33,507 bases of DNA, from NCBI GenBank assembly GCA_902773085.1, contig CACYDF010000054.1, positions 1 through 33,507 on the forward strand. Direction: 5' to 3'. The notes under the pieces are model-generated. The model saw nothing but the letters and a program-made list of their open reading frames with translations. It was not told the origin of the DNA and ran no database searches. Position numbers and translations under genes: made by a program. The DNA is from an uncultured Erysipelotrichaceae bacterium. GTDB lineage: Bacteria > Bacillota_I > Bacilli_A > RFN20 > CAG-288. Numbering within the stretch: position 1 is the stretch's first letter; each line of letters opens with the position of its first letter. This document shows, in pieces, positions 28,814 to 30,405 of this stretch.

Positions 28814-28835
28814 ATCACTAATTTTCATTAAAAAT

Positions 28836-28919
28836 AACCCTAAATTGGTGTTTTAAAGGCAATTTTTTGCCTCATAAACTCGCTTTTATTAGTAAAAACA
28901 GTAAAATTTAGGGTTTTTT
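28836..28919 (+). terminator. nested hairpin downstream of trxA (putative terminator or structured 3' element)
   Basis: AACCCTAAATT (28836-28846) pairs with AATTTAGGGTT (28905-28915), followed by T4. This encloses 58 nt that contain a small hairpin GGCAA-TTTT-TTGCC (28858-28871). Confidence 0.4.
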
Positions 28920-28959
28920 AATTAAATAATAGTAATTATTTATAAAATATAAAATCGTT

Positions 28960-28997
28960 GAAATGTACAAAGAGGACGCGTATTTATATCACTTTTT
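28960..28997 (+). repeat. repeat copy Z (degenerate left arm)
   Basis: gaaatgtacaaagaggacgcgtatttatatcacttttt. The right half GAG..GCGTATTT...CACTTTTT aligns with copies B and G. Confidence 0.5.
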
Positions 28998-29101
28998 AGC
29001 TTATGGCCAAGAATTGACAAGAAATATATCATAAATATCTGTTTTTAATAAAACTAGCAAAATAATCAAATTTATACATAAATTTATAACTATAATAGCC
29101 A

Positions 29102-29125
29102 TTTCTTCTCTTGCAAGAGAAGAAA
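29102..29125. repeat. repeat copy A (perfect 10-bp hairpin form)
   Basis: TTTCTTCTCT-TGCA-AGAGAAGAAA, with polypyrimidine and polypurine arms. Confidence 0.8.
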
Positions 29126-29190
29126 AAAGCATATGAAATATAAACTAGCGAAATAATTTGCTTATTTTCAATAATCATATGAAAAAGCAT

Positions 29191-29224
29191 TTTGTTCTCG
29201 TATAAGAGCGTATTTTCCCTTTTT
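29191..29224 (+). repeat. repeat copy B
   Basis: tttgTTCTC-GTATAA-GAG-CGTATTTTCCC-TTTTT. It contains CGTAT twice, 10 nt apart. Confidence 0.75.
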
Positions 29225-29357
29225 AAGATTAAAAAACATTATTATTGAAAAGTACAAAAACTAGTAGTTGAAGATAGAAATAAAAAAAATTAGATTTGCA
29301 TAAATATAACTTTTAAAAAGTAAATATTAGGTTAAATATAAAAACTAAAAAATACCT

Positions 29358-29392
29358 TTTTCTTCTCATATAAGAGGAGAAATTCGCTTTTT
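29358..29392 (+). repeat. repeat copy C (8-bp hairpin form with one G-U)
   Basis: ttTTCTTCTC-ATATAA-GAGGAGAA-ATTCGC-TTTTT. Confidence 0.75.
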
Positions 29393-29645
29393 AGCTATTA
29401 ACTGAATAGTCAAAAATAATAGATATATCTTGTTTTAGCGTGCATAATAATTTGCACATTAGTATAATTATCAAAATATAAAAAACTTTGCAGTCCATCT
29501 AGATCTTGAAAATTACCTGTATTAATATTTTAAATAATTATAGGAAATAATCTTTCTTAAGTATTTATTGTGATAAGTACCCATATTAAAAGCAAAAAAA
29601 TAATTTCTGGTATTTTCGCATTGGAATAACTACAGCTAAAAGGAA

Positions 29646-29680
29646 TTTTCTTCTCGTATTCGAGGGCATTTTCCTTTTTT
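29646..29680 (+). repeat. repeat copy D
   Basis: ttTTCTTCTC-GTATTC-GAG-GGCATTTTCC-TTTTTT. The right part also forms GAGGGCAT...ATGCCTC with 29683-29689. Confidence 0.75.
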
Positions 29681-30133
29681 AATGCCTCATAAATAGACTG
29701 CCTAGAATGAATCTTCTAATCTTAAAATACCTGTTTATATTATTTACACTACCTGCTATTTCGCAAATTATAAATCGTTATCTACTTGCAAAATATTTTA
29801 GATGAATATTACTTATCAAATAGATCTTTTATTCTTAAAATAAAATAATCACATTCCATAGGACCATTACTAGTCAAGAATCATACTTGCAGTAATATTG
29901 TTCCGATAAATGTTCACGTCGATCTTCTAACAATTTACTTTGTATTAATAACTTCTGCTTTACTATGTATTCATGTTACAATCTTAGTTTCCATTAAAAT
30001 ATATTGCTTTATATGTGAAGTAATTACAATATATATTTATTTTATTATTTTAATTATTTTACATAAGCTACCTTGCAAATTTATCGCATTGGTCAGATGA
30101 TTTAATTTTACTCACATATTACTTAAATAACGC

Positions 30134-30161
30134 TTTTTCTTCTCATACAAGAGAAGAAAAA
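30134..30161. repeat. repeat copy E (perfect 11-bp hairpin form, probably inverted relative to B)
   Basis: TTTTTCTTCTC-ATACAA-GAGAAGAAAAA. The orientation is inferred from the flanking 13-mer shared with copy B on the opposite strand. Confidence 0.75.
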
Positions 30162-30257
30162 CACCTTTATTATGCTTTTTCATACTCCTTTTCTCGCTAT
30201 ATATGGACTTCATATATTTAATTTGTCATGATATCATCTATTATTGTAATAAATGAA

Positions 30258-30293
30258 TTTTCTCCTCTTATATGAGGGCAAAATTTCTTTTTT
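30258..30293 (+). repeat. repeat copy F
   Basis: ttTTCTCCTC-TTATAT-GAG-GGCAAAATTTC-TTTTTT. Confidence 0.75.
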
Positions 30294-30324
30294 GAATCTA
30301 CTTATTCTTCCTTTTTGCTTGAAA

Positions 30325-30359
30325 TTTCTTCTCTTATATGAGCGTATTTTTGACTTTTT
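30325..30359 (+). repeat. repeat copy G
   Basis: tTTCTTCTC-TTATAT-GAG-CGTATTTTTGAC-TTTTT. Confidence 0.75.
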
Positions 30360-30405
30360 GAACTTTTCTCTGTACTACTATCTTAAACTTTTAATCCAAA
30401 TGAAT

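Follow-up and report, generated by a model that had tools for sequence, protein, structure and literature searches.

Why does a compact genome keep 1.6 kb of DNA that encodes nothing, and why is so little of that DNA preserved? Compact low-GC genomes rarely keep kilobase-scale noncoding DNA, but in the uncultured lineage studied here a block of 1.6–1.8 kb persists at one locus across species. Our window is the whole of a 33,507-nt metagenome contig (CACYDF010000054.1; ~28% GC), and the block is an AT-rich island, free of open reading frames (ORFs), between the stops of two convergent genes, trxA and a gene for a 952-amino acid (aa) protein. Within the island only the 28-nt palindromic core of a short repeat is preserved, and the number of copies changes between strains. 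We tentatively read the island as a nest of hairpin repeats resembling repetitive extragenic palindromes (REPs) and the bacterial interspersed mosaic elements (BIMEs) that they form. If the repeats are REP-like, hairpin-repeat nests would extend to an uncultured Bacillota lineage, and an array of ~8 copies at one locus would offer a small, tractable case for learning how such populations persist. If they are instead sites for a recombinase or for chromosome organization, the island would mark a cis-acting locus not previously described.

Results

The island holds a private family of palindrome-cored repeats

The repeat unit measures ~46 nt and consists of an A-run ending in G or C, T3-5CTTCTC, six variable bases, GAGAAGA3-5, a G or C, and a T-run. 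Its core is a 28-nt imperfect palindrome, in which an 11-nt pyrimidine arm and an 11-nt purine arm enclose a 6-nt center. When the whole window was scanned for TTCTYCTC-N6-GAG with at most one mismatch, ten strand-matches were obtained at seven loci, all of them in the gap, against an expectation of 0.9 for the entire window; none of 100 shuffles reached ten. Repeat searching likewise recovered families of 45–48 nt. We also built a hidden Markov model (HMM, used with nhmmer) from the seven copies and a covariance model from 19 aligned copies, namely 16 from two species (those of the window and of contig L043) and three from strain L042. Over 168,510 bases of DNA from the lineage and its relatives, read on both strands, every match to either model with E<0.1 falls within the island. 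The gap and its repeats are real, well delimited and, as far as these searches reach, private to the lineage, as a first-pass annotation of the window had proposed for the motif by eye.

The copies fall into two types (Table 1). Type 1 copies (A, C and E) are palindromic, as the first-pass annotation had described, with arms of 9–11 bp. In type 2 copies (B, D, F and G), the right arm is GAG[CG]G[TC]A plus T-rich sequence. This distinct arm had been taken to define a shared polarity; all four type 2 copies are indeed in the + orientation in the window, but this is not a rule, since two type 2 copies of L043 lie in the - orientation. The types alternate roughly in both species. The centers ATATAA and TTATAT are reverse complements of each other, also as claimed, and the irregular spacing noted earlier measures 66–489 nt in the window and is not conserved. 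Module flanks are duplicated and recur in direct and inverted order. Stems of type 2 are of very low stability, at -2 to -7 kcal/mol, and the folding z scores of B and G are about 0.

The count of eight copies and a partial one did not survive intact. Seven copies (A–G) are significant, but the eighth, Z, is matched by neither the HMM nor the covariance model and is a mere remnant, and the partial copy at 30189-30206 is not significant. Repeat searching ties Z to the tail of copy C; in L042, Z carries three substitutions and adjoins a 21-nt deletion.

The remainder of the gap is without credible coding capacity, which we rejected after finding that its ORFs of at least 20 aa are short, AT-driven and unconserved, that no start in the gap is led by a Shine-Dalgarno (SD) sequence, and that tblastx across species aligns the repeats only. 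The annotation was also right that this gap is far longer than any other in the window, the next-largest intergenic gaps being about 170–210 nt.

Table 1. Repeat copies, strain-variable segments and bordering features, in window coordinates
Feature	Position	Strand	Remarks
Copy A, type 1	29093..29137		Perfect 24-nt palindrome TTTCTTCTC-TTGCAA-GAGAAGAAA at 29102-29125
Copy B, type 2	29182..29227	+	TTTTGTTCTC-GTATAA-GAGCGTATTTTCCCTTTTT; left-arm C>G gives a G.T pair with its own right arm
Copy C, type 1	29350..29395		TTTTTCTTCTC-ATATAA-GAGGAGAAA; one T.G pair on the + strand
Copy D, type 2	29638..29682	+	TTTTCTTCTC-GTATTC-GAGGGCATTTTCCTTTTTT; outer AAAAGGAA/TTCCTTTT pair; folding z -3.1
Copy E, type 1	30127..30170		11-bp arms, TTTTTCTTCTC-ATACAA-GAGAAGAAAAA
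Copy F, type 2	30250..30295	+	TTTTCTCCTC-TTATAT-GAGGGCAAAATTTCTTTTTT; left-arm T>C pairs with G of its own right arm
Copy G, type 2	30319..30362	+	TTTCTTCTC-TTATAT-GAGCGTATTTTTGACTTTTT; folding no better than shuffles (z +0.6)
Z, decayed remnant of a type 2 right half	28972..29001	+	GAGGACGCGTATTTATATCACTTTTTAGCT; without left arm
Segment of ~740 nt including copy D, missing in L114/L115	29392..30132		C/E hybrid in its place: C left flank, E center and right flank
66-nt F-to-G unit, missing in L114/L115	30260..30325		Single F/G hybrid: F left flank, G right arm
ORF-free AT-rich island	28814..30405		1592 nt, GC 23.9%; between stops of convergent genes
trxA	28472-28813	+	Stop borders the island on the left
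952-aa ORF	30406-33264	-	Stop borders the island on the right
Probable trxA terminator	28836..28920	+	AACCCTAAATT ... AATTTAGGGTT, then T-run; fold -27.5 kcal/mol; outside the repeat family

Arms are kept while centers vary

How have the parts of the unit evolved? With the 16 copies of the two species set in register, the left arm matches the consensus TTCTTCTC in 12, the departures being B, F and the L043 copies x6 and x1, the last of which is degenerate. Five of the seven type 1 copies have both arms intact, and within type 1 changes occur at 4 of 126 arm positions versus 8 of 42 center positions (p=0.002). The type 2 arm is kept in both species, with species-specific variants. The center is 6 nt long in 19 of 19 aligned copies, and its positions 2–5 alternate between pyrimidine and purine in 15 of 16. 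Departures from TATA at the center comprise 13 transitions and one transversion, compared with 33:46 in the gap background (p about 1e-4, uncorrected for shared ancestry).

Changes in the arms bear on pairing. All three left-arm substitutions that can be aligned reliably restore pairing with the copy's own right arm (C>G in B, giving G.T; C>A in x6, giving A-T; and T>C in F, giving C-G), and cells of the G.U type outnumber those of the A.C type by 17 to 4. Paired cells make up 75.7% of the total, compared with 72.1% in shuffles (13/500) and 50–64% with slid partners, a formal count that favors a hairpin in a way that is suggestive, not overwhelming. Beyond the core, pairing also joins the outer A-run to the T-run, with intervening spacers that differ in length. 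Since arms are kept where centers and flanks are free, since substitutions restore pairing, and since the extended palindrome tolerates spacers of variable length, these patterns point to an arm sequence that would be recognized within a hairpin-capable element.

Copy number changes between strains

In L042, a relative at 98% identity, the island recurs at a length of 1571 nt (93% identical) with its seven copies collinear. Between the window and L042 the island differs by 5% substitutions and many indels, compared with 2–5.5% at third codon positions of the flanking genes; between L114 and L042 the gap differs by about 5%, compared with 0.85% in a 12.9-kb flank (99.15% identical). The island as a whole is thus unconstrained and drifts at or above the neutral rate. 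A separate observation is that the 120 nt at 29831-29951 have no substitutions between the window and L042, where the gap averages about 5%; this module is missing in L114/L115 and cannot be aligned in L043.

In L114 and L115 the array has four copies instead of the seven of the window and L042. These two strains, each 99.15% identical to L042 in 12.9 kb of flank, were sampled separately, and a comparison of 469 nt showed no difference between them. Two segments are missing, each replaced by a hybrid copy (Table 1), and both breakpoints lie inside identical core runs. With seven copies shared by the window and L042, the short arrays are most simply read as deletions. For the C/E junction, which lies in a stretch of 15 identical nucleotides, slippage or homologous exchange would be as good an explanation as a recombinase. 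Copy F is decaying in L042 (GAG>GAT). With copies that decay, modules that duplicate, copy number that changes through core-to-core events and intervening DNA that drifts fast, the comparison points to a birth-and-death population of repeats, not a set of genes.

The island also has a practical effect, in that it breaks metagenome assemblies. Three independent ones end inside the array: L001/L002 and L114 at copy A, and L115 at copy B. In window positions, the contig ends lie at ~29158 (L001), ~29089 (L002), ~29112 (L114, the center of A) and ~29200 (L115, the center of B). The breaks could reflect heterogeneity, loss of coverage at hairpins, or chance. An inversion at copy A as the reason for the L001/L002 break was rejected, both contigs being collinear with the window. 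L001 carries a T>G variant in the left arm of copy A.

The island belongs to one clade

Homologs of the neighboring genes formed four clusters for the 952-aa protein and seven for TraX, and these gave the relatives compared here. L043, whose neighbor protein is 76% identical, has an island of 1821 nt (GC 19.7%) at the same locus, with eight or nine copies: four of type 1 and four or five of type 2. Neighboring proteins of the window and L043 are 74–76% identical, and third codon positions 51–63% identical. At this distance, blastn and tblastx in all frames align only the repeats of the two islands, whereas promoter-bearing intergenic regions elsewhere still align at 75–83%.

Comparing the interval downstream of trxA in relatives, as the first-pass annotation had suggested, placed the island in L042 and L043; the island and its repeats are missing in the more distant L044, L045, L102, L103 and L104. 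In L044 (11134-11850) and L103 (7552-8265), an unusually long mscL (~238 aa) lies directly 3′ of trxA, L102 has a lipoprotein gene at the same spot (9457-10026), and L045 and L104 are rearranged. Because the distant relatives carry other genes there, without repeats, the island is a derived feature of one clade, at a generally plastic locus downstream of trxA. An mscL pseudogene was rejected, as tblastn of the relatives' MscL against the gap gave no match. A genome walk via the left-end protein recovered only contigs of ~1–4 kb. In L103, the stretch adjoining trxA-mscL (8282-17172) contains a gene resembling that of the anti-Pycsar protein Apyc1, an ABC exporter cluster of the C39-peptidase kind and a phage-type integrase.

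Known elements do not account for the repeats

The first-pass annotation had also proposed a check for known RNA families. Scanning the whole window with Rfam at the gathering thresholds, and the gap permissively, gave chance-level matches only, and no tRNA or tmRNA was found. We rejected a type I toxin-antitoxin system, there being no SD-led ORF and no hydrophobic mini-ORF conserved among the window, L042 and L043; a replication origin, as the gap has no DnaA box TTATCCACA at one mismatch or fewer; and a canonical dif site, with nine half-sites found versus 9.6 expected, a cumulative skew without inflection, and seven copies. A CRISPR (clustered regularly interspaced short palindromic repeats) array was rejected given the spacing of the copies and the lack of a cas gene, and a classical miniature inverted-repeat transposable element (MITE) is unsupported because unit borders show no duplicated flank and the sampled DNA no dispersed copies. 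A phage or plasmid origin was rejected as well: collections of phages and plasmids yielded nothing when searched with the gap by blastn, and pattern scans of viral contigs gave single chance matches. There was no convincing match to a CodY box, CIRCE or the other operators considered.

Pattern scans of genome and metagenome collections returned single matches only. Since the lineage is not included in these collections and its own locus was not recovered, the scans are uninformative on other copies in the lineage. Two low-GC matches that we inspected (L017 and L037) lie in coding sequence, and others belong to unrelated palindrome families.

Discussion

If none of the familiar elements fits, what are the repeats? 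The reading that we rank first, and hold tentatively, is that of a lineage-specific, noncoding nest of REP/BIME-like extragenic hairpin repeats, recognized in trans and expanding and contracting by recombination between cores. It is ranked first because the behavior of the hairpin repeats matches that described for REPs, BIMEs and REPINs. REP and BIME elements are imperfect palindromes of 20–40 nt, with several subtypes, compensatory changes and a stem mismatch that is required for binding, and they form clusters of up to 12 copies whose number at a locus varies between strains (PMC3333891; PMC3116915). Like the island repeats, they are short and extragenic, often lie between convergent genes, keep the stem and a mismatch within it while the loop or linker varies, and can be clustered at one locus (up to about 12) in strain-variable number. 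Among the four readings that the first-pass annotation had offered, the one naming REP/MITE-like elements or recombination sites has fared best, as the units are hairpin capable, clustered and strain variable, with breakpoints in their cores; its classical MITE part is unsupported.

How might such a nest work? Each ~46-nt unit can form a hairpin, whether as RNA or as a single strand of DNA, and its arm sequence would be recognized by a trans-acting factor, for which the most plausible candidate is an enzyme that processes DNA hairpins specifically, like those maintaining REPs or recombination sites. Reading by this factor would keep the arms constant while centers and flanks drift, and the array would grow and shrink through recombination between cores and duplication of short modules. 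A side effect of the hairpins may be to halt transcription in the stretch separating the convergent genes, or to insulate it. The island is a real extragenic hairpin-repeat variant; its function is unproven, and the trans-acting factor, the single-stranded state and any benefit to the host are inferred.

Several observations weigh against a REP-like nest. Classical REPs are dispersed, with >100 copies per genome (PMC2817692), whereas no copy turned up outside the single island, either in the 168.5 kb of lineage DNA scanned or in what was sampled, a small part of each, from three genomes. No GTAG-like tetranucleotide precedes the hairpin on its 5′ side, where the flank consensus is AAAAG[C/G], and the stems are AT-rich pyrimidine/purine stems. 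Instead of short defined linkers and a regular alternating BIME layout, the array has long irregular spacers (66–489 nt) and mostly one orientation, with all type 2 copies of the window in +. REP, BIME and REPIN elements are proteobacterial and associated with RAYT or TnpA_REP, whereas the island's host is a low-GC Bacillota-like organism with no known RAYT; the window contains no RAYT, IS200-type or recombinase gene, and the fetched flanks no RAYT. Half of the type 2 units fold no better than shuffles, yet the subtype is kept in both species. It is also odd for a purely selfish element that a population of ~8 copies should persist at one locus across species, and the strict 6-nt center with its alternating pyrimidines and purines would also suit a duplex-binding dimer or a recombinase. 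Lacking GTAG, an alternating BIME layout and a known RAYT, the nest lies outside the classical REP family.

The constraint on the center leads to the alternative that the units are read as duplex DNA. It is possible, though on balance unlikely, that a dimeric protein or a site-specific recombinase, encoded elsewhere, recognizes them as arrayed 11-6-11 sites, type 1 being symmetric and type 2 hybrid, and that the array has a chromosomal function (in topology or with gyrase, or terminus- or centromere-like) or a role in cassette-like recombination. A 6-bp spacer in 19 of 19 copies, inner bases that alternate in 15 of 16 and the excess of transitions at the center (13:1 versus 33:46) are consistent with such sites, as are an arm sequence that does not vary between the species and seldom shows double changes in its inner stem, a type 2 half-site that is distinct and conserved even without a hairpin, the single locus and the rough alternation of types. 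The deletions, too, run precisely from core to core between sites of the same orientation, and the centers of F and G are identical. However, the substitutions that restore pairing and the 17:4 excess of G.U over A.C are unexpected for duplex recognition, and pairing between the A-run and T-run flanks, whose spacers differ in length, also counts against it. Nor does the window contain a recombinase or partition gene, a canonical dif arm, a GC-skew switch or, in the gap, a DnaA box; the sites are irregularly spaced, their distances are not conserved, a strain exists with four of them where others have seven, and slippage or homologous exchange fits the C/E junction equally well. The dif/Xer system has the same 11-6-11 geometry with an alternating pyrimidine/purine center, a likeness that serves as a lead and not as a test; the island differs from it in having many copies instead of one, no XerD arm above chance and no skew switch. 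The iteron or centromere-like array that had been suggested earlier does not hold up against spacing that varies between 66 and 489 nt without conservation, and the CGTAT-N5-CGTAT arrangement cited for it is peculiar to copy B. Bolder still, and in our view quite unlikely, would be a cis-acting locus that is dedicated to one task and under selection, in a Bacillota lineage of reduced genome, composed either of symmetric and hybrid 11-6-11 sites at which a recombinase or hairpin-specific enzyme would insert and excise short noncoding modules in cassette-like fashion or of a chromosome-organizing site of the terminus, centromere or gyrase type; if real, it would be a single-locus system without a described counterpart in the group. 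Integron arrays are another comparison. attC sites carry R″/L″ and L′/R′ boxes, of which R″/R′ read RYYYAAC ... GTTRRRY, and their cassettes bear ORFs; inspection of the aligned copies and their consensus revealed no GTTRRRY/RYYYAAC boxes at the unit ends, although no dedicated pattern scan was made. Arrays of attC sites, including CALINs (clusters of attC sites lacking integrase), resemble the island in being imperfect palindromes at a single locus, mostly in one orientation, with a species-specific repeat, irregular modules and precise loss between two sites, and in CALINs, as here, there is no recombinase gene nearby (PMC4889954). The island differs in its shorter unit, its ORF-free modules of 66–489 nt and the lack of any integrase seen.

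Alternatively, the repeats may act in RNA, a reading that we consider unlikely, in which type 1 copies would be bidirectional and type 2 copies unidirectional intrinsic terminators, or the hairpins would stabilize the 5′ or 3′ ends, of short noncoding RNAs made in the island, including sibling small RNAs. Four terminator-like sites in the window gap (0.4 expected) and four in the L043 gap (0.1 expected) all lie on repeats, and, as in bidirectional intrinsic terminators, an A-run, a hairpin and a T-run follow one another, with G/C at the stem base; the consensus scan flagged these eight copies in all. The G.U bias and pairing-restoring changes also fit, and L043 copy x9, in sense orientation, follows the 952-aa gene at ~75 nt from its stop. 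However, the genuine terminators of this genome have unique, GC-containing stems of 10–13 bp followed directly by a T-run, whereas the island stems are conserved and repeated, are separated from the T-run by 2–5 nt and in type 2 are very weak. Terminators normally keep neither their stem sequence across species nor a fixed 6-nt loop, and by our estimate a T-rich tail beside a palindrome is about what chance would give in such AT-rich DNA. As for small RNAs, the LhrC family provides a precedent for multicopy RNAs with CU-rich motifs in low-GC bacteria, and like the island it groups several related units in an intergenic region and combines a CU-rich motif with a hairpin of terminator type (PMC4132741). 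In the island the CU-rich TTCTTCTC is base-paired as the 5′ stem arm, in contrast to LhrC motifs, which lie in loops or single-stranded stretches (PMC4132741); loops are variable and units span 66–489 nt. Promoter-like sites are not enriched (13 versus 16.8 and 12 versus 19.1 expected) and none keeps a constant distance from the repeats; an RNA body is not conserved either, only the repeats aligning between the window and L043, and Rfam gives no match. The first-pass annotation had suggested sibling small RNAs with CU-rich anti-SD seeds such as UUCUUCUC, complementary to GAGGAG/GAGAAG SDs; this genome uses the canonical SD AGGAGG and not GAGAAG, and the seed matches AGGAGG poorly. With the block in a stem, no promoter at a fixed distance and nothing conserved between repeats, that proposal is poorly supported. 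Could the island instead be debris? It would then be noncoding DNA left after loss of mscL and expanded as slippage and segmental duplication multiplied a palindrome, with neither factor nor function. Drift at or above the neutral rate, decaying copies, duplicated modules, the dispensability of about half the array in L114/L115 and the relatives that do without the island are as expected for debris. Near-invariant arms (12 of 16 left arms match the consensus and five of seven type 1 copies keep both arms), at a distance where third codon positions are 51–63% identical, argue in the other direction, as do arms that change six times less than centers, the retention of both subtypes in both species and the persistence of a 1.6–1.8-kb noncoding block in an otherwise compact genome, and we regard debris as very improbable.

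Other features of the window and its relatives

Translation with code 11 reads the window well, leaving long ORFs intact. Its housekeeping genes encode enolase, ClpB, a CDP-alcohol transferase, an NAD kinase-like protein, MsrA, CdaA, Udk, YqeY and MreB, and others encode an Rce1-like protease, TraX and thioredoxin. The window lacks any recombinase, transposase, cas or partition gene, in line with what the first-pass annotation had stated for the vicinity of the gap. The same DNA also occurs in metagenome assemblies in ENA, where the source samples of the lineage are represented by ERZ28613830, ERZ27291632 and ERZ12289770. The 952-aa neighbor of the island is without a Pfam match and has a weak match to an M6-family metalloprotease domain (NCBIfam).

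Pattern scanning of the collections brought up two unrelated repeats. One is a family of 34-nt perfect palindromes, AGAGGTTTCTCCTCTT(TA/GC)AAGAGGAGAAACCTCT, on many contigs (L014, L027, L047, L062, L066, L068, L071, L074, L082, L085, L087-L090 and L099); L014 and L027 are labeled as one genome of candidate division WWE3, the remainder being unlabeled metagenome. The other, CTTTCTTCTCTTGAAAGAGAAGAAACAAGAGAACTT, occurs on high-GC (56–62%) contigs of Oscillospiraceae/Bacillota metagenome-assembled genomes (L019, L021 with two copies 145 nt apart, L032 and L035).

In L110, at about 1590-1680 and just to the left of the window's first ORF, a stretch looks tRNA-like by eye on the minus strand. Several gene starts in the window (for example 4844, 6214, 10135 and 27552) are without any SD, while others have a strong AGGAGG, and the TTG starts at 2195, 15289 and 26490 may be miscalled. 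Finally, the window encodes a 1571-aa ORF (21775-26490, minus strand) that is without any family match and whose synteny, like that of the 952-aa gene, is kept across the clade.

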